From: Bacteroidales bacterium
GTDB lineage: Bacteria; Bacteroidota; Bacteroidia; Bacteroidales; VadinHA17
Direction of reading: 5' to 3'
Assembly: GCA_034679225.1 (NCBI GenBank)
Contig: JAXDBC010000038.1
Location: 10,595 to 74,594 of the forward strand
DNA length: 64,000 nt
A model generated the notes under the pieces. That model was not told where the DNA came from, ran no database searches, and saw only the letters and a program-made list of their open reading frames with translations. Numbering within the stretch: the stretch's first letter is position 1; every line of letters starts with the position of its first letter. Below, in pieces: positions 12,438 through 63,689 of this stretch. The translations under genes and the position numbers were made by a program.

Positions 12438-13214
12438 ATGTTGTATTTAAAAACTGATGAAGAGATCGGATTGTTGAGGGAAAGCAATTTGCTGGTGTCA
12501 AAAACACTTGGGGAACTTGCATCGCTTATCAAACCGGGAGTAACAACTCTTTATCTTGACAGTATCGCGGAGGAATTTATACGGGACAACGGTGGAATCC
12601 CTGCTTTCAAGGGATACGGAGGTTTTCCCGCGACACTCTGTACATCTGTCAACGATGAGGTGGTTCACGGAATCCCTTCATCATACATCCTCAGAGAAGG
12701 AGATATTGTATCGCTCGACTGCGGTGTGATCCTAAACGGATGGTACGGTGACAGCGCTTTTACTTTTGCAGTGGGCGATATAGACGAATCAGTCAGACGC
12801 CTTATGGATGTCACAAGAGAGGCTCTTGAGGAAGGAGTAAAGGAAGCTATCGCCGGCAACAGGATCGGGGATGTTTCCAGGGCAGTTCAAAATAAGGCTG
12901 AAAGCGGAGGATATTCGGTGGTAAGGGAGCTTGTCGGTCATGGAATCGGGAAAAGCCTTCACGAACCACCCGAAGTGCCGAACTACGGACGGAGAGGTAC
13001 AGGGTCCAAAATGGAAAAAGGGCTTGTTATTTGCATAGAACCCATGATCAATCTCGGAAAGAAGGAGACAATCCAGATGAGGGACGGATGGACGATAAAG
13101 ACAATCGACGGCTTACCGTCGGCTCATTATGAATATGCCGTGGCTGTCGACAGGGGAAGAGCAGATGTATTAACAACTTTTAAATTTATTGATGAAGTTC
13201 TAAATAAATCGTAA
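12438..13214 (+). CDS. map: Type I methionine aminopeptidase
   Basis: [13 protein letters not shown] and HYEYAV metal-ligand motifs. ATG at 12438 preferred over TTG at 12435. Confidence 0.95.
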
Positions 13215-23902: not shown

Positions 23903-23989
23903 ATGAAACCCATGTCTGTCGAACACAAAAACACGTATTTACATAATTTTCAGTCATGTGGCTTGCCCCGCCTGAGCGGGCACCTTTAA
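23903..23989 (+). repeat. ATG-headed repeat module, copy 2 (28-codon open frame MKPMSVEHKNTYLHNFQSCGLPRLSGHL)
   Basis: Aligns without indels over 26 codons to the copies at 62400 and 42656(-). Its stop lies 18 nt before the ATG at 24008. Confidence 0.6.
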
Positions 23990-24007
23990 ATCAAAAATAA
24001 TAACCCG

Positions 24008-24364
24008 ATGTACGAAATAAGAGAACTGTCGGAGAGCGAAAGGAACTGGGCAATGCTGTGTCATCTGTCCGCGTTTGCCGGATATTTTTTCCCCTTCGGA
24101 GGCATCCTGGGGCCGCTGATCTGCTGGCTGTTGAAGAAGGATGAGTCGCGATGGGTGGACTTTAACGGGAAATGGGCCCTGAATTTCCAGATTTCCATCT
24201 TATTATACATGGTGCTGGCAACCCCTCTTGCCTTTATAATAGTAGGTATTCCAATACTTCTGTTCCTCGGTTTCCTGGAAGTGATCTGTATTGTCATAGC
24301 AAGTGTCAGGGCATCGAAGGGCGAAGAATTCAGATATCCACTGTGTATCCCTTTCATTCAGTAA
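24008..24364 (+). CDS. Small integral membrane protein (DUF4870-like by recollection)
   Basis: 118 aa, 3-4 hydrophobic helices, NWAMLCHLSAF start typical of that family. Confidence 0.65.
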   Translation: MYEIRELSESERNWAMLCHLSAFAGYFFPFGGILGPLICWLLKKDESRWVDFNGKWALNFQISILLYMVLATPLAFIIVGIPILLFLGFLEVICIVIASVRASKGEEFRYPLCIPFIQ

Positions 24365-40059: not shown

Positions 40060-40108
40060 ATGAAACCCATATGTGTCAAATGCATAAAAACAACCTGGCG
40101 GGGCAGGC
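40060..40108 (+). repeat. ATG-headed repeat module, truncated copy 4 (fused in frame to the next gene)
   Basis: atgaaacccatatgtgtcaaatgcataaaaaca...ggcggggcaggc matches the 5' end and 3' end of the other copies. A TAcaTTTG box lies at 40031-40038. Confidence 0.5.
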
Positions 40109-40137
40109 ATAAGATTTTTAAAATAAATTATATACGA

Positions 40138-40665
40138 ATGAAACCATTGCTTATTTTTTTGATTACCTCCGGGATCATCGTGTCATGTTCCGGTAAGGGA
40201 TCAGGAGGCGGAAAGGAAGGCGCTTCGGGGGATATAATAACAGCTGCAAGGGATTATTCCTCGGCTTATTTTGCCAGGAAGCTTGGTAATGCAAGGATTT
40301 TTACCGACGAAGAGGACGGATTGCTAACCATCACCAATGATATCAGCGGTTACAAGATAAATCATGGAAAGATTGTAACCGGGCTCATAGACGATGATGA
40401 AGCTGAAGACGGCATAGTTCCCTTTTACGCCATGCAGGGCAGGTCGATCATGGGATATTATCATATGATACTACTGGCTTCAGCCGATACCTTCAGGGTT
40501 GCGAAGACCGTCAGTGGGATTTTTACTGTTCACGATATCAGGGACAGGAAGATAATTGCCGAGGTATCTACCGTATCTCCCGATTCACCCGGATATGGTT
40601 GTGATAATTGCCGGGAGGTAATTAGTTACCTGTGGAATAATGGCAATCTGGAGAAGGAGGAATAA
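40138..40665 (+). CDS. Hypothetical lipoprotein
   Basis: MKPLLIFLITSGIIVSCSG lipobox from the ATG at 40138. The track ORF starts at an upstream TTG. Confidence 0.65.
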   Translation: MKPLLIFLITSGIIVSCSGKGSGGGKEGASGDIITAARDYSSAYFARKLGNARIFTDEEDGLLTITNDISGYKINHGKIVTGLIDDDEAEDGIVPFYAMQGRSIMGYYHMILLASADTFRVAKTVSGIFTVHDIRDRKIIAEVSTVSPDSPGYGCDNCREVISYLWNNGNLEKEE

Positions 40666-40716: not shown

Positions 40717-42543
40717 TTACAAGTAATCAGGATTCTGAACAAGTACGCCTTTCTGCAGGTCGATCTGACCTTGTGGAACAGGCATGAATTTATCCCTGTT
40801 TTCGAAGCTTGCACCATGCATGAAAGACCTGATTCTCAGGTCGCCCCTCTGGAAAGCATTAAGAGTGGCTGCCATGTCAACTCTCAAACCTGCAGGAAGG
40901 TCGTCCCAGCGTCTGAGGTCGAAGAAGCGTCTTCCTTCCATCGCGAACTCAAGTCTCTGCTCCCACTGAACAGCTCTCATGGCTTCTTCCTTGGTTGCAA
41001 AAGGAGGATAGAGTCCGATCTTATAATTTGCTGCAGGCTGAGTCCAGTCGACAGCACCACCTACACCGTAGTCGGCATCTGTTGATCCCTCTCCCCACGG
41101 GTATACTGAAGGCGGCAGGACATTAATGGTCACCCTTCCCATAACAACCTGGTTATCGGCTCTGTCGCGGATCTGGTTAACATAATTTCTTGCTGTCACC
41201 AGGTCGTTTTCAAATGCAGCGACTTCAGCTCTCCATAGAAGGATATGTGCATACCTGATATAGCGCCAGTTATTGGCATTTACACCGGTCTGCCAACCGG
41301 TTGTGGTTGAGAGAGTGTAGCGTTCCGATTTTTTAAAGAAAGGTTTTGTTGAAGGCATGTAAGGTCCCCCTTCCGACTGTTTGCGGATCCAGTTACTACC
41401 GCGCATTATTCCCCAGTCTTTATATGGAATTCCCCTGCGGCCAACCGTCCAGTCGAGACGGGGGTCAACTTCATCTGTAAAAGGTACGAATGGCTGATCG
41501 GATGATATTCCCTGATCGTTCTTCAGGTCCACGTCATTAAATGTGTCGAACATTGGCAATCCGTTCGCATCTACCTTAAATGCATTTACAAGGTTCTGCG
41601 ATGGCTGGTGGAAGCCGCAGCACATACCTATGTCGCCCCCGTGAGGCCAGTTAAGGCCTATGCCCATCTCTGCATTCAGCGATTCATTTATGTCATTGAC
41701 ATTTGCCTGAATCTCGAAAATGGACTCTTCGTTATTTTCGGTAGCAATATTGAAGTTGTCAATAAAATGGGGCATCAATTTGAACTGTCCGCTATTTATA
41801 ATTTCATCAAGCAGTGGTTTAGCCTCGGCATATTTCAGTTTCTGCAGGTATGCCCTTGCGGCAACGGCCTTTGCTGCCCACTTTGTAGGACGGCCGGGCT
41901 GTGCCTGTGTGGCAGGCAACTTACTTGCAGCATATTCCAGATCGGCAATGATAAAATTAAGCACGGCTCCATCGGCATTCTCATTTGAAACGGATGCCGG
42001 ATCCAATTCTGTCTCATCAATAATCGGGATATAATCTCCGAACACCAGCCAGGCTTCAAAATAAAACAGTCCCCTGAGGAAGCGGACCTCGGACCTGAAT
42101 CTGTCTGCAACCTCTTGAGTTATTGTTCCGTCTTCGAGAGTTTTATCTATCACTCTCAGAGTTTTGTTGGCACGGTCAACTCCCATACCCAGGCAAAGTC
42201 TCCACTTGTCGGCCGGATAGCCGTTATCGGTGGTCACTTCCCATCGTTCGATAAAATTGACGGGAACCTGGTCGGTAATTTCCGAACCCTTGTAGGCGTC
42301 GTCCGATGCAACTGATCCGTAAGTCCAGTTCTGGATAGAGGCGCCCCAGGACACGGTCCAGAGTGCGCTTCCTTTGACCATCCCGTATGTTCCTGTCAAC
42401 AGCGCATCAATACCTTTCTCGCTATAGAAGACATTCTCTGATGTTTGTCCCTGGGGAGTTTTTGTCAGAAAATCTTCCGAGCAGGAATAGAACATGGCCA
42501 CGAGAAAGAATGCAGCCAGTATCATTGATAATTTTTTCATCAT
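40717..42543 (-). CDS. SusD/RagB-family nutrient-binding lipoprotein
   Basis: Lipobox MFYSC, RLEFAMEGRRFFDLRRW motif. Confidence 0.93.
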   Translation of the reverse strand: MMKKLSMILAAFFLVAMFYSCSEDFLTKTPQGQTSENVFYSEKGIDALLTGTYGMVKGSALWTVSWGASIQNWTYGSVASDDAYKGSEITDQVPVNFIERWEVTTDNGYPADKWRLCLGMGVDRANKTLRVIDKTLEDGTITQEVADRFRSEVRFLRGLFYFEAWLVFGDYIPIIDETELDPASVSNENADGAVLNFIIADLEYAASKLPATQAQPGRPTKWAAKAVAARAYLQKLKYAEAKPLLDEIINSGQFKLMPHFIDNFNIATENNEESIFEIQANVNDINESLNAEMGIGLNWPHGGDIGMCCGFHQPSQNLVNAFKVDANGLPMFDTFNDVDLKNDQGISSDQPFVPFTDEVDPRLDWTVGRRGIPYKDWGIMRGSNWIRKQSEGGPYMPSTKPFFKKSERYTLSTTTGWQTGVNANNWRYIRYAHILLWRAEVAAFENDLVTARNYVNQIRDRADNQVVMGRVTINVLPPSVYPWGEGSTDADYGVGGAVDWTQPAANYKIGLYPPFATKEEAMRAVQWEQRLEFAMEGRRFFDLRRWDDLPAGLRVDMAATLNAFQRGDLRIRSFMHGASFENRDKFMPVPQGQIDLQKGVLVQNPDYL

Positions 42544-42656
42544 AATAAGATTTTTATTTTTAATGGAATGATTCCTTCCCCGCTCAGGCGGAGGAACTCA
42601 CATGACTGAAAATCATACAAATGTAGGTTTGTATATTTGACACATGTGGGTTTCAT
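42540..42656 (-). repeat. ATG-headed repeat module, copy 3 (38-codon frame MKPTCVKYTNLHLYDFQSCEFLRLSGEGIIPLKIKILL)
   Basis: Lies in the susC-susD intercistronic gap. Its TGA overlaps the susD ATG as ATGA. Confidence 0.6.
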
Positions 42657-42690: not shown

Positions 42691-45600
42691 CTACAAACCA
42701 AGGCTGATTCCGAACATTAGCTGTTTTGAAGTCGGCCATGAGCCATTATCCAGACCCATTCCATCGCCTGTTCTGTATAATTCGGGATCGAGTCCGCTGT
42801 ACCTGGTAAGAGTAAAAAGATTGGTCAGCTGCACATAAAAATTAACGCTCCTTATCTGTGCCTTGCCTACAAAATCTCTCGGAAGTGTATAACCCAGTCT
42901 CAGTGTCTTAAACCTCAGGAAGGAACCATCCTCGACAAAAGCGGAGTTGGAGTTCTGGGAGTTGGCGTCCTGGTCAAGCATGGGAAGTTTTGCATCTGCA
43001 TTATTTTCGAGATGCGGGCTGCCCCATGATTTATAAAGGGCATCCTTGCTTAATCCGCCATTGAACTGGCCATAATCTATCCATCTGCTGACGTAGTTGA
43101 TGATATCATTTCCATAGCTTCCATAGAAGAACATATTCAGGTCAAAATTCCCATAGCCAAGGTCAATATTCAGACCACCGGTCAGATCGGGATGAGGGTT
43201 CCCGATGAATGTCATGTCATTGGGATCTATTATATTATCTGCTCTATCCATCACTCCGTCTCCGTCGGAATCAATTGTCAGCTGGTTCTTGAATTTGAAA
43301 TGACCAGGAACATTGTAACCTGTGTTTCCGAAAGGCTGATGAGCTGCAGCTTCTTCCGCGGTTTGGAAAATACCCTCAACTTCATACCCGTAGAACACCG
43401 GGAAAGGGGTTCCGACATAAGCACGGGTATATTCAACCTGCCGTTCGGATGTTCCCGCGATGTAGCTGACACCCGGAGCAATCTTGGTGATCTCATTCTT
43501 GTAATGCGAGAGTGTCAGTTTCAGGTTATACCTGAATTTGCCGTCCATGGCTGAGTTCCTGTAGCCGAGTTCCAGATCGAAACCCTTGTTTATCATCTCG
43601 GCAATGTTGATAAAAGGCGGCCTTGCAAGGCCCACAACGTTTGGTATTGGCTGCTGGAATAGCATGTCGCTTGTATTTCTCTGCCAGATGTCAAATGCAA
43701 AGGTCATATTGTTATTAAGAAACATGGCATCAACACCCAAGTTCATGGTGGTCGTGGTTTCCCATGTCACGTCGGGGTTACCGAGCGTGGAAGGCTCGAA
43801 TCCGGTTATAGCGGCCGTGTTTGAACCGTCCAGCGCGTAGGAGGCGGTGTATTTGTTGGAACCGTATGTGGAATAGGAGTTATAGTTTCCAATCCTGTCA
43901 TTTCCCGACATCCCCCAGCCTGCTCTCAACTTCAGGAAGTTAAGCCAATTCTGTGAACCCTGCATAAAGCTCTCTTCCGAGAGTGTCCATCCTACTGAAG
44001 CAGCCGGGAAAACACCATACCTGTGGGCGGCGCTAAACCTTGATGAACCGTCGCGACGAATAGTTCCCTCAACAAGATATTTTCCCTTGTAGTCATAGTT
44101 AACTCGTCCGAACAGTGAAAACAATGACCAGGATGAACCTGATCCGGAATTATCCTTATTGATCTCACCGGAGCTGAGCCACATATAACTCGGGTCTTCT
44201 GAAAAATACTGGCTCCTGCTTGCATTTACCCATTCATCCTTGCTTTCGATGGCTTCGGTGCCGAGAACAACATTGAGTTTGTGATCGTTGGCGATTGTAG
44301 TGATGTAGTTAATCGTATTTGTCCAGTTCCATTGCAAGCCAAAGCTGGAACTGATATTATGCCCGTTAACTTTGTTAGGTTCAGAAAACTCAAAATCGGG
44401 GATTGTATAACCCTTATAGTTCCACTGGCCGAAGTTGTAACCAAACAAACTTTTAGCGGTAAGCCCTTTCAGTATTGTAAACTCACCATAAAAGTTCCCC
44501 AGAGCTCTCGCCCACTGGCCCTGATTATTTCTTGCCCTGTAAAGGCCTGCCACAGGATTGGAGCCATTGCCCATTTCAGGGGCTCTTGAACCTGCAAAGT
44601 TTCCGGCGATATCATAAACGGGGATTATAGATTGTGTACGGTATGCATTTGAAATAGGAGTTCCTTCACCGCTTTGGGAAAGGTTGCCATGTTCATTAAT
44701 ATATATTGCCTGCAGTGACTGACCTGCCTTAAACCAGTTATTTACCTGAACGTCGGAATTAACCCTGAAGGTATAACGCTTGAAGTTCGTGTGGATCAGC
44801 AATCCATTTTCATTAAGATAATTACCTGAGAACGCGTAGCTTGACCTGTTTCCGCCCCCGCGTACTGAAAGGTCATATTCCTGGGAAATGCCTTTCCTGT
44901 ATATCTCATCATACCAGTTTGTACCTTCCTTGTTGGCTTTATAAATCGTTTCGTCGGGGTAGCTGTAACGCGACGGATCTACCTGGGGATCGCCTTCCAT
45001 CTTTCCGGCAGGAAGAATATAATCAGGCATAACCGGGGTGGAGCCGTTTCCGTACTGTTGATGTTGCGGCGGAACCCCTCTGTTCTTGAAAGAAAGCCAC
45101 ACGGCTTCCATGTATTCGGTTGGATTAAGAAGATCATACTGGTTTGCACTCATGTGTACTCCTGAGCGGAAGTTGAAGTCGATATTGGCTGCCTGACCTG
45201 CACGACCGCGCTTGGTAGTTATAATAATAACACCGTTTGCGCCCCTGGCTCCGTATATTGCAGCTGAGGCAGCATCCTTAAGTATTGAGATCGATTCAAT
45301 GTCGTTTGCGCTGATGTTATTGCCTGTGCTGGTAGGTACACCGTCAATCACGTACAATGGTTCGGAGTCATTTATGGTACCGATACCACGGATCCTGATA
45401 ATGGCATCGCCTCCCGGGCGGTTGGCTGAACTCACGGTAACACCCGAAGCCTGCCCCTGAAGGCGCGACATTACGGAAGGAGCGGGCACAGCAGCCTGAA
45501 GTGCATCGTCCTGAACGGTTGATATGGAACCGGAGAGGTTTTTCCTGACCTGGGTGGTATAACCAACAACCACGATTTCATCAAGGCTGGAAACCGTTTC

Positions 45601-45972
45601 TGCCAGAACAACATTTATGGAAGTCATGCTTCCCACGGTAATCTCCTGGCTTGTATAACCAACGAATGAAAATGAAATAACCGAAGCGGCAGAAGATACT
45701 GTCAGGGAGTAGCCCCCGTCGATGTTCGTGATCGTTCCGTTTGTTGTTCCTTTTTCAATCACGTTGACACCGGGCAGCCCGGCACCCGTGTTATCAGTAA
45801 CACGACCTGCAACAGATATCCTCTGTGGGTCGTCAGAAGGGACACTCCCCGCGTAGGCGGTTGACATAAGAAGTATCCACACCATTGGCAGAATTGCCAT
45901 CTGTTTCAGGGCCAATCCCGGTGTTTTCAGGACGGACCTTAGAAAGACAGATGCTTTTTGTTTTTTTGTCAT
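42691..45972 (-). CDS. SusC/RagA-family TonB-dependent outer-membrane transporter
   Basis: 1093 aa, same domain order as 28182-31430, C-terminal FGISLGL. Confidence 0.95.
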   Translation of the reverse strand: MTKKQKASVFLRSVLKTPGLALKQMAILPMVWILLMSTAYAGSVPSDDPQRISVAGRVTDNTGAGLPGVNVIEKGTTNGTITNIDGGYSLTVSSAASVISFSFVGYTSQEITVGSMTSINVVLAETVSSLDEIVVVGYTTQVRKNLSGSISTVQDDALQAAVPAPSVMSRLQGQASGVTVSSANRPGGDAIIRIRGIGTINDSEPLYVIDGVPTSTGNNISANDIESISILKDAASAAIYGARGANGVIIITTKRGRAGQAANIDFNFRSGVHMSANQYDLLNPTEYMEAVWLSFKNRGVPPQHQQYGNGSTPVMPDYILPAGKMEGDPQVDPSRYSYPDETIYKANKEGTNWYDEIYRKGISQEYDLSVRGGGNRSSYAFSGNYLNENGLLIHTNFKRYTFRVNSDVQVNNWFKAGQSLQAIYINEHGNLSQSGEGTPISNAYRTQSIIPVYDIAGNFAGSRAPEMGNGSNPVAGLYRARNNQGQWARALGNFYGEFTILKGLTAKSLFGYNFGQWNYKGYTIPDFEFSEPNKVNGHNISSSFGLQWNWTNTINYITTIANDHKLNVVLGTEAIESKDEWVNASRSQYFSEDPSYMWLSSGEINKDNSGSGSSWSLFSLFGRVNYDYKGKYLVEGTIRRDGSSRFSAAHRYGVFPAASVGWTLSEESFMQGSQNWLNFLKLRAGWGMSGNDRIGNYNSYSTYGSNKYTASYALDGSNTAAITGFEPSTLGNPDVTWETTTTMNLGVDAMFLNNNMTFAFDIWQRNTSDMLFQQPIPNVVGLARPPFINIAEMINKGFDLELGYRNSAMDGKFRYNLKLTLSHYKNEITKIAPGVSYIAGTSERQVEYTRAYVGTPFPVFYGYEVEGIFQTAEEAAAHQPFGNTGYNVPGHFKFKNQLTIDSDGDGVMDRADNIIDPNDMTFIGNPHPDLTGGLNIDLGYGNFDLNMFFYGSYGNDIINYVSRWIDYGQFNGGLSKDALYKSWGSPHLENNADAKLPMLDQDANSQNSNSAFVEDGSFLRFKTLRLGYTLPRDFVGKAQIRSVNFYVQLTNLFTLTRYSGLDPELYRTGDGMGLDNGSWPTSKQLMFGISLGL

Positions 45973-46218: not shown

Positions 46219-46312
46219 GTGCGGTCTTGCAGTCCTGCTTGCCCTGAGCCCTGAGCCCTGAGCCCTGAGCCCTGTGCCCTGTGCCCTGTGCCCTGAGCCC
46301 TGAGCCTTCCTG
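46219..46312. repeat. Mixed array: 2-3 octamer units (GTCTTGCA-like) then about 10 heptamers (GAGCCCT/GTGCCCT)
   Basis: gtgcggtcttgcagtcctgcttgccctgagccctgagccctgagccctgagccctgtgccctgtgccctgtgccctgagccctgagcc. Confidence 0.9.
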
Positions 46313-48662: not shown

Positions 48663-51086
48663 TCAGAATTCCAGTCCCAGCCTCAGCATAAAATTGGTTC
48701 CTGCCTGGGGAAAATAATATGCCCAGCTAAGTTCCTTTCCGTCTTCAAACCAGTTGCCTCCATATGCATTGCTCACATATCTTGCATTGAAGACATTGTT
48801 TACAAGAAGTTGAATACCGGCGCTCCTGAGGTTTTTAATCACCGGTTCGAAATCGATCATAATGTCGCTGACCATGTATGGATCCAGCATCCTTTCACTG
48901 TTCATGGTGTTGTCGAAATACTGCTTCCCGACATATTTTGTAATGAAATGCAGTTTCAGGGAAGGGAGGATATTTGCATACAGATTGCTGCTTCCTGTAA
49001 TTGAAGGCGAGTAGGCTATATCAACCTTACCGAGATGAAGGCTCTTGTATTCCTCCGACCAGTCGGATGTATTATAATCAATATAATGCTCTACAAAATC
49101 AACTATCTTGTTGCTGCTCAGTGTCAGGTTCAAATCGAGACCGATGAAATCTGCCGGTTTGAAGCCTGCTGTCAGTTCGGCTCCTATCCGGTAGCTTTTT
49201 TCGACATTTGTCATTATTGAATAGCCCACATTGCTTAGTTCGCCCGTCGGCACCAACTGGTCGCGATACAGCATTCCGTACAGGTTGAGCCCTGCCGAGC
49301 TCTTTGCCGCTCTTACAACATAGCCGGCCTCAATGTCGTAAAGCCGCTCAGGTTTTGGTGTTGCCTCACTGTCGCCCGAAGCCTCCTTGAAATCGGTTCG
49401 TGTCGGTTCCCTGTTAGCCACCGACAACGAAAGGAAAGCCTCCTGTCCTGGAAAGAGCCTGAGGAAGAGTCCTGCCTTAGGATTGAAAAAATGGAATTCA
49501 TGAGTCTGCCCGATATCCTTTAGATCGTCGTCTTCGCCCCTGAGCGAGTAGTTGACATGCCTGTACTGAAGGTCGCCAAAAGCCGACAGTTTATCTGTTA
49601 ATGAATAGTTTATCTTCCCGTAAAGGCTTGCTTCCTTTTTTTCACCATTGTTGAAATACCATTGATAATTGTTCTCCGCTGATCCGGGGTATCTCGTCCA
49701 GATAATCCTTCCATAATGGTCGCCTGAATAGAGATTAATTCCGCCTCCGATCTTTGAGTCAATTTTATCTTTACGGTAATTCAGCGACCAGACAAGTCCG
49801 TGAAAACCGTTTGACATCCATTTTCTCCGGATCAGGTCGGTTTCATCCATTGTAAGGCTTCCGATGGTCACTTCCGGAAGGCCGTATTTGCTGTACTTTT
49901 CATCCTCCCTGAACTCTTCGTAATAGCCTTTGCCGTAAGTATAGTGAAGGGCGGAATTTAAGGAAACAAAATCATTTATTTTCCTGCCGAATATCAGGTG
50001 ATAGTGATTCTGGGTGTAGTTATCGCTTTCGTTGTCATAATAATGCACCTTTCCCAGGTCATCGGAGTATTCTCCGGCCGGATTATAACGTCTGTCGATG
50101 TTAAGCATCTCTTTCGGCACTCCCCACCATCCTATCCCTGTTTTTTCCTTTCCAAGTATAACATTAGCTTTTATAAGCGATTTTCCAGTCCGGAACAGAG
50201 CGCTGAACAAGGCCGAATTATGTTCCGATCCTGTTCTGGCAATATATCCATTGCTTCTAAGATCGGACCAGCGCATCTGGAATGCAAACCTCTCTTTCAG
50301 CAATCCTGTTCCGGCTGTAATGCTGTTTCTGAAAGTTCCGTAGGAGCCGGCAGCCGAACTGATCCCTGCAAATGGTTCGTTTTCAATACCTTTAGTTTGG
50401 ATGTTTATTGAAGCCCCGAAGGCACCGGCCCCGTTAGATGAAGTTCCCACTCCTCTCTGTACCTGAATATTGTCGACAGAGGAAGCCAGGTCGGGCAGGT
50501 CGACCCAGAAGACCTGTTGCGATTCGGGATCATTTAGGGGAATTCCGTCAATGGTGACATTTATCCTTGAAGCATCGGTTCCCCTTATCCTCAGACTGGT
50601 ATATCCGATTCCGTTTCCAGATTCCGATGTCCCGACAAATGAAGGTGTAAGATTCAAAAGAAAAGGTATTCCCTGGCCGGAATTATTTTTTTCCAGTTTT
50701 TCTCCCGTCACATTTGAATAAGCGAGCGGAGTTTGTTCCCCGGCCCTTGTCGCGCTTATTATGACATCGTTGGTTACAATGGTTTTCAGTCGCAGACTCA
50801 CATCCTCTTTCATATCTCCTGTCACATGTATCTCCCTGATCTGTGTTTCATATCCCATGAAGGAATATCTCAGGGTGTAATACCCGGATTTAAGTCGTGC
50901 GAGCATGTAGTTCCCGGAGGCATCGGTATGGACACCGGTAAAAGTTCCCTCAATAATCACGGCGGCACCCGCGAGTGCTTCGCCAGCAGAGTCGGTAACT
51001 TTGCCGCTGAGGCTCTGGCCTGTCATATGAAAGGAAAAGGAACCCAGCAGAATAAGTGACGACAGAAAAAGCAGTTTTTTCCTCAT
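48663..51086 (-). CDS. TonB-dependent receptor (thiamine-regulon outer-membrane transporter type)
   Basis: 807 aa, CarboxypepD_reg N-terminus, plug, C-terminal ...LRLGLEF. Preceded by a TPP riboswitch and followed 4 nt later by the pnuT-like gene. Confidence 0.9.
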   Translation of the reverse strand: MRKKLLFLSSLILLGSFSFHMTGQSLSGKVTDSAGEALAGAAVIIEGTFTGVHTDASGNYMLARLKSGYYTLRYSFMGYETQIREIHVTGDMKEDVSLRLKTIVTNDVIISATRAGEQTPLAYSNVTGEKLEKNNSGQGIPFLLNLTPSFVGTSESGNGIGYTSLRIRGTDASRINVTIDGIPLNDPESQQVFWVDLPDLASSVDNIQVQRGVGTSSNGAGAFGASINIQTKGIENEPFAGISSAAGSYGTFRNSITAGTGLLKERFAFQMRWSDLRSNGYIARTGSEHNSALFSALFRTGKSLIKANVILGKEKTGIGWWGVPKEMLNIDRRYNPAGEYSDDLGKVHYYDNESDNYTQNHYHLIFGRKINDFVSLNSALHYTYGKGYYEEFREDEKYSKYGLPEVTIGSLTMDETDLIRRKWMSNGFHGLVWSLNYRKDKIDSKIGGGINLYSGDHYGRIIWTRYPGSAENNYQWYFNNGEKKEASLYGKINYSLTDKLSAFGDLQYRHVNYSLRGEDDDLKDIGQTHEFHFFNPKAGLFLRLFPGQEAFLSLSVANREPTRTDFKEASGDSEATPKPERLYDIEAGYVVRAAKSSAGLNLYGMLYRDQLVPTGELSNVGYSIMTNVEKSYRIGAELTAGFKPADFIGLDLNLTLSSNKIVDFVEHYIDYNTSDWSEEYKSLHLGKVDIAYSPSITGSSNLYANILPSLKLHFITKYVGKQYFDNTMNSERMLDPYMVSDIMIDFEPVIKNLRSAGIQLLVNNVFNARYVSNAYGGNWFEDGKELSWAYYFPQAGTNFMLRLGLEF

Positions 51087-51109
51087 CTCTGTATCAGTTA
51101 AAACTATAT

Positions 51110-51205
51110 ACCGGGTGCATTTGTTCCCTACGCCGGCATTACCCGGATCAGGTGCAAGGGTATGATCTCAGCCCGTAATAATAAGGCACCCCGTAAATGA
51201 CGATG
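51110..51205 (-). promoter_or_regulatory. TPP (THI-box) riboswitch
   Basis: The minus strand reads CAUUUACGGGGUGCC...GGGCUGAGAUCAUACCCUUGCACCUGAUCCGGGUAAUGCCGGCGUAGGGAACAAAUG. It shows the canonical CUGAGA, ACCUGAUC.GG.UAAUGCC.GCGUAGGGAA core and a CAUUU/AAAUG P1, about 25 nt before the ATG at 51086. Confidence 0.9.
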
Positions 51206-61719: not shown

Positions 61720-62364
61720 ATGGTCAAGAAAAGAAAAATCCAGGACGGCGAGGATAAAGATATAAACCACCCTGAAACATCTGAAAATAAAAGCAATGCG
61801 AATGCTCATGACTCTGAGGCTACCGTAGCATCAAAGCCGGGCGCTGAAGATGAACCAAAGGCAGGTCAGTCTGACCCGGAAACAGCAGCCAGTGAAGAAG
61901 CTGACAAAAGGAAAGAAGAAGACAGGGCAATACTGGAAAAACTGGCAGAGATGCAGGACAAGTATCTGAGGCTTTCAGCCGAGTTTGACAATTACAGAAA
62001 ACGCACCTTAAAGGAAAAGATGGATATTTCCAAATATGCCGGAGAAGAAATAATGAAAGACATCCTTCCTATCATTGACGATTTCGACAGGGCTCTGAAG
62101 CATATGGAATCATCGCCTGATTGTGAAGGGATCAAGGAAGGCATTGACCTGATCTACAATAAGTTTATTGATTACCTGAAGCGTCAGGGAATTAAAGAGA
62201 TAGAGTCGCTGAATGAAGTATTCAATGTTGACATTCATGATGCAACCGCGAAGCTCCAGGTTGAGGAAGAAGAAAGGAAGGGCAAGGTGGTGGAAGTGCT
62301 TCTGAAAGGCTATTACCTTAAGGATAAGGTACTCAGACATTCAAAGGTTGTTATAGGAGAATAA
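61720..62364 (+). CDS. grpE: Nucleotide exchange factor GrpE
   Basis: Acidic N-terminus, RLSAEFDNYRKR motif. Confidence 0.94.
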   Translation: MVKKRKIQDGEDKDINHPETSENKSNANAHDSEATVASKPGAEDEPKAGQSDPETAASEEADKRKEEDRAILEKLAEMQDKYLRLSAEFDNYRKRTLKEKMDISKYAGEEIMKDILPIIDDFDRALKHMESSPDCEGIKEGIDLIYNKFIDYLKRQGIKEIESLNEVFNVDIHDATAKLQVEEEERKGKVVEVLLKGYYLKDKVLRHSKVVIGE

Positions 62365-62399: not shown

Positions 62400-62516
62400 A
62401 TGAAACCCACATGTATTGCATACACAAACACGTATCTATATAATTTTCAAACATGTGGGTTCCCCCGCTTGAGCGGGGCAGGCTATCATACCATTGAAGT
62501 CAATATTATATTATGA
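62400..62516 (+). repeat. ATG-headed repeat module, copy 1 (38-codon frame MKPTCIAYTNTYLYNFQTCGFPRLSGAGYHTIEVNIIL)
   Basis: Lies between grpE and dnaJ. Contains an AACCCACATGT/ACATGTGGGTT inverted repeat and a CCCCGC-TTGA-GCGGGG hairpin. Its stop lies 18 nt before the dnaJ ATG. Confidence 0.6.
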
Positions 62517-62534
62517 TGAAATAAAGGAGTCGGG

Positions 62535-63689
62535 ATGGAAAAAAGAGATTATTATGAAGTGCTTGGCGTGTCGAAGGAAGCGACTAAGGAGGAAATAAAG
62601 AAAGCATACCGCAAGCAGGCATTGAAATATCATCCCGACAAGAATCCCGGCGACAAGGCTGCCGAGGAGAAATTCAAAGAGGCTGCAGCGGCATACGAAG
62701 TTCTGAGCAATGATGAAAAGCGTGCCAGGTACGATCGCTTCGGACATGCAGGAGTAAGCGGAGCCGGTGAAGGATTCGGCGGTCCGGGAGGTATGACCAT
62801 GGAGGATATCTTTTCGTCATTCGGGGATATTTTCGGTGATGCCTTCGGAGGATTTGCCGGATTCGGATCTTCGAGAAGAAGCGGTGGAAGGAGGGTTAAT
62901 AAAGGCACCAATTTAAGGGTCAGGGTAAAACTGGACCTTCAGGAAATTTCGGCAGGCACCGAAAAAAAGATCAAGGTAAGCAAATATGTAAGCTGCAGCA
63001 AATGTGACGGTTCAGGTGCAGCCGATGCAAACAGCATCACGAACTGCACCACCTGCCACGGTTCGGGGCATATTACCCGTATTGCCAATACGCTTCTTGG
63101 GCAGATGCAAACCACTTCGGTATGCCCCTCGTGCAACGGCGAGGGAAAGACCGTTACTAAAAAGTGTGCTTCATGCTATGGTGAGGGAATTGTTCGGAAG
63201 GATGAGATAATAAATATCAATATCCCTGCCGGTGTCTCCAGGGGTATGCAGATGAACCTTGAGGGAAAGGGCAACGCGGCACGACGCGGAGGTATCAACG
63301 GTGATCTCATCGTGGTCATCGACGAGGAAGAACACCCCGAACTCATAAGGGAAGGCAAGGACCTTATCCACAATCTCTTCATCAGCATACCTGATTCAAT
63401 CCTTGGATCCAATGTTGAAGTACCGACAGTCGAGAACAGGGTGAAAATAAAGATAGAGCCCGGCACCCAGCCAGGGAAGATACTGAGGCTCAGGGGCAAG
63501 GGATTGCCTGAAGTAAACGGCTACGGGAGAGGCGATCTGCTTGTTAACGTTAATGTCTGGATTCCGAAAAATATCACAAGGGAAGAATCTAGAATAATTG
63601 AAAAGTTTAAGGACAGTGAGTCCTTCGTCCCTAAGCCCGACAAGGATGACAAGGGATTCTTTGAAAGGATGAGAGGCTATTTCCAGTAG
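62535..63689 (+). CDS. dnaJ: Molecular chaperone DnaJ
   Basis: J domain (HPDKNPGD), G/F region, four CxxCxGxG zinc motifs. Confidence 0.97.

Follow-up and report, generated by a model that had tools for sequence, protein, structure and literature searches.

The 64-kb stretch of DNA analysed here (64,000 nt, hereafter the window) carried four copies of a repeated module which, with a probability of roughly 0.8, is a non-coding, non-autonomous mobile DNA element of about 116 nt, possessing four conserved stems and inserting one-way at the hexamer ATGAAA. One ATGAAA (5'-TTTCAT-3' on the other strand) was present per junction, and a single insertion orientation was observed. What is new in this family is its target, a start codon followed by a Lys codon, which is regenerated upon insertion; the family accumulates at gene starts and mimics an upstream micro-gene.

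Each copy was defined as extending from the 5' ATGAAA to the base preceding the 3' ATGAAA. Names of the neighbouring genes were taken from Pfam matches on record for the same proteins (GrpE, DnaJ, SusD and MamF_MmsF/DUF4870), and susC was likewise named as a TonB-dependent SusC-type receptor. The copies were located as follows:

62400..62515, + strand: copy 1, full element of 116 nt between grpE (61720-62364) and dnaJ (62535-63689), bases 1-6 being the 5' hexamer ATGAAA
62516..62521, + strand: target copy of ATGAAA (3' hexamer of copy 1); it does not start a gene but is part of the spacer, with the dnaJ ATG 13 nt downstream
23903..24007, + strand: copy 2, older, 105 nt, without the 5' arm of stem P3, its end adjoining the start codon (24008) of a 118-aa MamF_MmsF/DUF4870 gene
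42541..42656, - strand: copy 3, full element of 116 nt between susC (42691-45972, -) and susD (40717-42543, -), its 3' hexamer ATGAAA (42540-42535) being the second ATG of susD
40060..40137, + strand: copy 4, 78 nt, apparently decaying, with an internal deletion and both ends kept, its 3' hexamer ATGAAA (40138-40143) being the start of a 175-aa lipoprotein gene

All four copies had been picked out in the first-pass annotation and were found in place; an nhmmer profile built from the three full copies (copies 1 to 3) recovered each of these at E of about 1e-26 and copy 4 at E 9e-4, and detected no fifth copy in the 64-kb window. The gap-free alignment reported for the three full copies held over 84 nt, and the peptide translations of copies 1 to 3 were confirmed. 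The same was true of the 18-nt distance from stop to start in copy 1 (stop 62514-62516, dnaJ at 62535) and copy 2 (stop 23987-23989, gene at 24008), as well as of the overlap of stop and start in one copy, namely copy 3 (TGA within ATGA). Copy 4, which had been taken to be cut at 40108, was in fact internally deleted, with both ends present, and abutted ATGAAA at 40138. Upstream of susC, at about 46233-46312, a 7-nt unit was repeated in a row, reading CAGGGCT or CAGGGCA on the minus strand.

Relatives were collected with the anchor pattern CATGTGNNTTNCNCCGCYTGAGCGGG, which excludes the ATG and the 5' half of the element. Among species-representative genomes, 24 loci were found in 10 Bacteroidota MAGs, including 8 in one Rikenellaceae MAG and 6 in Bacteroidales JAAYQC01, which shared 94% identity with the window over 6.3 kb; a further 56 loci were on metagenome contigs, most of which seem to come from anaerobic digesters. 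Diverged copies were added when all fetched DNA was searched with a profile, and grouping of the loci by their flanks gave 43 independent insertion sites (Bacteroidota MAGs plus digester metagenomes), at which the element had a modal length of 116 nt and a median pairwise identity of 0.82. The hosts were all uncultured Bacteroidota MAGs; viral contigs scanned with the core pattern gave 0 matches, and blastn against plasmids and phages showed no match to the element. The module could not initially be placed in any described family. In the database searches, Rfam 15 at gathering score gave no match to the element in the whole window, Rfam with 211 nt around the element and E up to 10 gave chance-level microRNA-type matches only, three micro-ORF peptides had no match in Pfam, and no description was found in the literature searched for the element. 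Elsewhere in the window, the TPP riboswitch family Rfam RF00059 scored 60.7 bits, exceeding its gathering score, at 51107-51203 (-), directly upstream of an 807-aa ORF (48663-51086, -).

Read 5' to 3' in the sense of the gene, the element consists of ATGAAA, the 5' arm of stem P1, a small hairpin (Pv), an unpaired stretch, the 3' arm of P1 and hairpin P2, followed by the linker CAGGC(T), the 5' arm of stem P3 (ATCAK), an A/T-rich loop, the 3' arm of P3 (MTGAT-G) and the second ATGAAA. In copy 1, the stems were positioned as follows:

62404-62414 with 62451-62461, + strand: stem P1, 11 bp, AACCCACATGT paired with ACATGTGGGTT
62413-62423, + strand: hairpin Pv, GTAT-TGC-ATAC, small and variable
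62463..62478, + strand: hairpin P2, CCCCGC-TTGA-GCGGGG, which varies least of all parts in the family
62484-62489 with 62513-62518, + strand: stem P3, TATCAT paired with ATGATG, closing an A/T-rich loop

The family consensus of the P1 arms was AACCCACATG (5') and CATGTGGGTT (3'); this stem uses the final A's of the 5' hexamer and encloses Pv plus the conserved single-stranded stretch CAAACACGTAT..ATATAATTTTCA. Across the 43 sites Pv occurred as GTAT/ATAC, GTTA/TAAC, GTTT/AAAC, CCCGCC/GGCGGG or TTG/CAA, and P3, the 3' arm of which terminates in the very ATG of the 3' hexamer, occurred in the covarying forms ATCAG/CTGAT, ATCAT/ATGAT, ATCCG/CGGAT and ATTAT/ATAAT. Over 26 copies, about 90-91% of the stem cells were paired, versus 31-46% when the partners were slid. 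Terminal inverted repeats were absent from the 43 sites, the consensus 5' end being CCCACATGTATT.. and the 3' end ..AATTATATWMTG, and the former was unrelated to the reverse complement of the latter (CAGTATATAATT / CATAATATAATT). Two alleles of the dnaJ site, L081 (2888-2987) and L085, lacked exactly 22 nt (CCCCGCTTGAGCGGGGCAGGCT), corresponding to P2 plus CAGGCT, and encoded an identical DnaJ protein.

A consensus scan of copy 1 and its surroundings revealed no sigma-70-type promoter and no intrinsic terminator, inspection of both strands by eye gave no good match to the Bacteroidetes -7 motif (TAnnTTTG), and no T-run followed P2; a reading as a mobile promoter or a terminator is thus without support. 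An invertible promoter was also considered and rejected, the segment between the 11-bp arms, which are about 45 bp apart, being unflipped in all of the approximately 100 copies.

The hexamer ATGAAA was present at the 5' junction in 34 and at the 3' junction in 36 of the 43 sites. Counting ORFs of at least 60 aa or running off the contig, the 3' hexamer opened such an ORF in 36/43 sites, versus 17 of the 82 other ATGAAA in the window (binomial p 2e-18), and the genes behind it were unrelated, encoding SusD homologues, lipoproteins, a radical-SAM protein and a DUF4870 protein. The earlier observation that the module lies just upstream of, and co-oriented with, genes therefore stands and is explained by the 3' hexamer being the start codon in these 36 sites, while the fixed orientation relative to the gene follows from the asymmetry of the target hexamer.

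Empty alleles were found for two sites. In contig L089, whose DnaJ is identical to that of the window, exactly the 116 nt of copy 1 were missing, and the grpE-dnaJ spacer was 54 nt with one ATGAAA in place of ATGAAA-[110 nt]-ATGAAA (..caggaaATGAAAcaaaggag.. versus ..caggaaATGAAA[ccc...ttatg]ATGAAAtaaaggag.. in the window). At loci L104-L107, the orthologous DUF4870 gene (89% identity) was preceded by a 47-nt spacer and started with ATGAAAGAT / ATGAAAGATATAAGAG, where the window has ATGAAA-[99 nt]-ATGTACGAAATAAGAG (..attatcATGAAAgatataagag.. versus ..gtcgtcATGAAA[ccc...cccg]ATGTACgaaataagag..). The 3' hexamer of copy 2 had drifted to ATGTAC in the window; insertion in this lineage was thus onto the start codon, and the regenerated codons have since drifted from Met-Lys-Asp to Met-Tyr-Glu. 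Look-ups with SusD and lipoprotein genes for more empty sites returned filled alleles only. Since a single ATGAAA was present at both empty sites, the module is an insertion with an asymmetric target of 6 nt.

In many Bacteroidota genes ATGAAA forms the Met-Lys start, the most frequent type of start, and 116 nt of inserted DNA would destroy a gene if placed inside it, so that the copies surviving would be those exactly on start codons, as the anatomy suggests. The 5' end of the gene would retain ATGAAA, whereas the second ATGAAA, beside the native upstream region, would head a fortuitous micro-ORF. The enrichment at gene starts can thus be attributed mostly to selection removing intragenic insertions; by a rough estimate, however, start codons make up about 45% of the tolerable ATGAAA sites, and the observed share at gene starts was 84%, which implies some additional targeting or selection. 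The 5' flank was A/T-rich, with an A at -12 (12 nt upstream of the 5' hexamer) in 33/43 sites, as expected of a native Bacteroidota translation-initiation region.

The first-pass annotation had proposed a duplicated or mobile module, preferring selection on a 26-residue peptide and naming a REP-like repeat as the alternative; the duplicated or mobile nature is borne out, whereas selection on a peptide is not supported. An ATG followed in frame by the ..RLSG core was retained in just 20/43 sites. The other 23 had an early stop, a frameshift or no ATG (MKPT*, MKPTSRLRRDKHV*, a shifted frame such as ..NMWVPPLERGRLSYH, or CTG, ATA, ATC or TGA as the first codon), and these broken copies occupied gene starts just as the open copies did. 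In the 23 copies that were indel-free in codons 1-26, codon positions 1/2/3 held 22/17/18 variable alleles, with no third-position excess, and distinct codon variants were 11 synonymous versus 43 non-synonymous, which is the pattern of unconstrained change. The small hairpin Pv corresponds to codons 5-9 of the proposed peptide, where the sequence was replaced wholesale with retention of pairing but not of coding, and the copy-4 orthologue in JAAYQC01 had CTT in place of the 5' ATG (5' hexamer CTTAAA). Broken frames together with random orientation had been named in advance as the signature of a pure repeat; stops and frameshifts were indeed common, but orientation was fixed.

Some observations do favour a conserved upstream micro-ORF, that is, a leader peptide or coupling cassette selected for its peptide or frame and duplicated before genes. 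Besides the 20 open copies, frame 1 alone of the six was free of internal stops in the type-A consensus, and the TGA of the micro-ORF overlapped the real start codon (TGATG or ATGA) in 14/43 sites; moreover, after insertion the native initiation region precedes the 5' ATGAAA, and the frame is therefore probably translated. An open frame 1 of 38 codons, however, arose in about 10% of shuffles of the consensus, and the ATG AAA at the head of the micro-ORF is accounted for by the target hexamer. Of five micro-ORF peptides, two were present in the protein collection as predicted 'hypothetical proteins', one cluster representative being recorded on 188 contigs, so gene callers do annotate this repeat as a gene. 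The similarity among the peptides is that of a young DNA repeat, and the orientation and position at gene starts do not demand a leader-peptide function; selection for the peptide or frame is accordingly considered very unlikely. The 38-61-aa 'hypothetical proteins' of Bacteroidales MAGs would then be explained as repeat artefacts.

Within the family, copies in tandem or nested, with the hexamer as the joint, were found at L022 and L041/L079. The same insertion site carried a different internal module depending on the sample in L025 versus L080 and in L002 versus L064 versus L074; in these two sets and in L028/L066, the internal module or paired P3 bases differed while hundreds of flank bases were identical. 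Such same-site differences point to gene conversion among copies, to a site being hit more than once or to reads being mixed during assembly, and some elements diverged more than their otherwise identical flanks, for which assembly mixing is an alternative cause. Taken together, tandem or nested copies and module swaps are signs of a mobile, recombining family, part of them possibly due to assembly mixing. A second repeat of 117 nt was located in tandem 3' of the main element in L041 (8358-8474), L059, L076 and L079; it had termini of the same kind (ATGAAACCCTCAT ... TACGTGTGAAA) and another interior, and was seen at a single site only. L041, L076 and L079 had their elements in common and differed in one flank, reflecting either rearrangement at repeats or chimeric assembly. 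For metagenome assembly, the practical consequence of the repeat is breaks or false joins at gene starts, as illustrated by contigs ending in the element and by the conflicting flanks of L041/L076/L079.

Initiation in Bacteroidota is not led by Shine-Dalgarno sequences. After insertion, the gene would be translated from the 3' hexamer, which lies behind the A/T-rich tail and is half buried in P3, and ribosomes starting at the native site would read the fortuitous frame; the A/T-rich tail is probably a replacement translation-initiation region. Translational coupling is possible at the 14 sites where TGA overlaps the true ATG, but cannot be general. Copy 3 shared 97.1% identity with its JAAYQC01 orthologue, the 3 differences being adjacent bases in one loop, whereas third codon positions of susC and susD were about 87% identical, suggesting that the susC-susD copy is under constraint or co-opted. 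Copy 4 shared 79.5% identity with its orthologue, which together with the loss of the 5' ATG there suggests decay.

Pairing of the start codon in the covarying P3, conservation of the susC-susD copy beyond neutral sites and the location of copies within operons (grpE-dnaJ, susC-susD) would all fit a cis-regulatory RNA, such as a riboswitch, thermometer or processing site, in which P3 hides the start codon and which has spread because it is useful. Yet the element matched nothing in Rfam even at E 10, its host genes are unrelated (SusD, lipoproteins, radical-SAM, DUF4870 and the dnaJ spacer), its presence differs among strains, copies other than that at susC-susD decay, and alleles without P2 or an arm of P3 persist. 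Such an origin is considered the least probable of the readings weighed here, and a regulatory effect is possible as a by-product of the element. Somewhat less doubtful, though still unlikely, is a single-strand transposon homing to start codons, with an end motif that is the reverse complement of ATG-AAA, which would have evolved to be harmless to translation. Ribosomes on the native region would read the open frame, melt the stems and stop at the TGA overlapping the regenerated start, and the A/T-rich tail would supply a new initiation region free of Shine-Dalgarno sequence. If so, the element would be tolerated, and sometimes co-opted (susC-susD), as a portable 5' leader, and the mover may be an enzyme not yet linked to such elements.

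For the movement of the element, the tentatively preferred mechanism, given a chance a little short of even on structural analogy, is single-strand 'peel-and-paste' by an HUH/Y1 transposase acting in trans, as in PATEs derived from IS200/IS605. Members of IS200/IS605 insert 3' of a transposon-adjacent motif (TAM) of 4-5 nt and have a near-identical transposon-encoded motif (TEM) as the right end, produce no duplication and scarless donor joints, and possess subterminal hairpins and internal guide bases pairing with both motifs; they yield gene-less PATEs moved in trans, and TTCAT is one of their documented TAMs (PMC10055086). The antisense layout of the present element is TTTCAT / CAGTATAT..(37 nt)..[P2] GAACCCACATG ... 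[Pv] ATGTGGG TTTCAT /, where slashes indicate the element ends (TTTCAT/CAGTATAT.. and ..ATGTGGGTTTCAT/). Subterminal hairpins are thus located near both ends, P2 being 37 nt from one and Pv, which conserves shape rather than sequence, separated from the other by 7 nt and the hexamer (13 nt in all). On this strand, TTTCAT would represent the TAM, followed by subterminal hairpins and a matching TEM, with a long left and a short right spacing, and guide-like pairing would be provided by internal CAT with the ATG of the hexamer (P3) and by TT with AA (P1). With the ends joined via one hexamer, ..TATG-ATGAAA-CCCACATG.. would pair continuously with the segments flanking P2, and the invariant hairpin would be set opposite the hexamer.

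Several observations bear on IS200/IS605-type movement. Both junctions carry ATGAAA/TTTCAT and the empty sites one copy, a picture to which a true 6-bp duplication would look identical. Covariation was confined to the internal pairs next to the hexamer; as the hexamer never varies, its covariation with a guide cannot be scored. Against a PATE, Pv, the would-be right-end hairpin, is too variable for a sequence-specific binding site. Wobble pairs favoured neither strand consistently; the antisense strand folded more stably in 38/43 copies with RNA parameters and in 34/43 with DNA parameters, which may simply reflect its G/T-rich composition. A tblastn search with an IS200 TnpA sequence as probe detected no cognate transposase with matching ends in the 755 kb of fetched loci plus the window, so that the mechanism stays inferred.

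The sole Y1_Tnp gene in these sequences was located in L043 and was flanked by a different repeat family. It encoded a 150-aa Y1_Tnp protein (IS200-like HUH; 12721-13173; Pfam E 3e-14, under the NCBIfam IS200 cut-off). In the region 12318-13722 of L043, and likewise in L044, two copies of a hairpin-rich repeat of about 100 nt preceded this gene, and tandem units of about 124 nt (CCCCGGATAAAACCGGGG, CAGCCCTCCGGGCTG) followed it, an arrangement that appears REP/RAYT-like and unrelated in sequence to the element. Partial copies in L007 and L019 were considered as autonomous partners and rejected, as they follow ordinary genes.

Two other routes of movement would also produce directly repeated hexamers. 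A classical MITE, derived from a double-strand transposon with a DDE transposase and a sequence-specific 6-bp duplication of ATGAAA, is consistent with the identical hexamers at both junctions, the single hexamer at both empty sites and the small size, A/T-richness and multiple copies of the element, and the fixed-length direct repeat sought in MITEs was present (6 nt, always of the same sequence). Its ends, however, are not inverted repeats, which makes such an origin unlikely; furthermore, orientation is strictly fixed relative to the asymmetric hexamer, and bases of the hexamer take part in internal stems. Insertion by an integron-like, Xer-like or IS110-like site-specific recombinase that crosses over at ATGAAA agrees with the fixed core directly repeated at both junctions, with the head-to-tail arrays and with the fold, in which a conserved hairpin faces the core. 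A double-stranded circle of 116 bp would be too small to form, though, no recombinase gene was linked to any copy, and the ends lack the inverted core sites of attC, making this route rather improbable, slightly more so than the MITE.

The element provides a clean natural case in which a mobile element targets the start codon and its insertion regenerates that codon, and it adds an interspersed element to the Bacteroidota, a phylum with few described. It also offers a handle on how these bacteria tolerate wholesale change of a 5' leader and, if the link to IS200/IS605 is true, a compact substrate on which target choice through base pairing can be studied.

Among known systems, Correia/NEMIS, ERIC, RUP and other bacterial MITEs, as well as the Rickettsia palindromic elements, are small, structured, multi-copy and co-transcribed with their neighbours, whose expression they sometimes alter or into which they read through in frame; they either carry terminal inverted repeats and duplicate TA or another target, or lie in frame within genes. 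The present element differs from these in lacking inverted termini and in regenerating a start codon. Mycobacterial MIRUs are reportedly intercistronic repeats with small ORFs overlapping the stop and start codons of their neighbours (Supply et al. 1997), and the element is similar in its co-orientation within operons, its small ORF and, in some copies, the overlap of the stop with the next start; unlike in MIRUs, its frame is disrupted at over half of the sites, and it is an insertion that has a defined target hexamer and conserved stems. As in REP/REPIN-RAYT systems, interspersed G+C-rich hairpins are presumably handled by a Y1 HUH enzyme (PMC8266576, PMC3479197), and the related contig L043 has a RAYT-like gene with its own hairpin arrays. 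REPs, however, measure 20-40 nt, carry a conserved tetranucleotide on their 5' side and are found mostly downstream of genes (PMC8266576, PMC3479197), whereas the element is a 116-nt composite with 36/43 copies on start codons, and its hairpin is unlike the repeats around the RAYT-like gene of L043. The element is thus not a REP/REPIN, not a MITE with terminal inverted repeats and not a MIRU-like coding repeat.

With PATEs, the element shares the absence of inverted termini, subterminal hairpins, a size of about 100-150 nt, scarless empty sites and strict orientation, as well as, apparently, a short fixed motif flanking one end, a near-identical motif forming the other, which would require no duplication, and internal bases pairing with the motif, and its antisense motif TTTCAT resembles the documented TAM TTCAT (PMC10055086). 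It differs in that no cognate tnpA or full-length element was found, in that one of the two hairpins is hypervariable, and in that the motif pairs by ordinary Watson-Crick pairing within long stems; moreover, the motif here, when reverse-complemented, spells a start codon and a Lys codon, and copies consequently accumulate on gene starts. To our knowledge, such accumulation on gene starts is undescribed for the PATE/IS200/IS605 family. By analogy of structure, the element appears to work most like a PATE of the IS200/IS605 family, of which it is a putative member.
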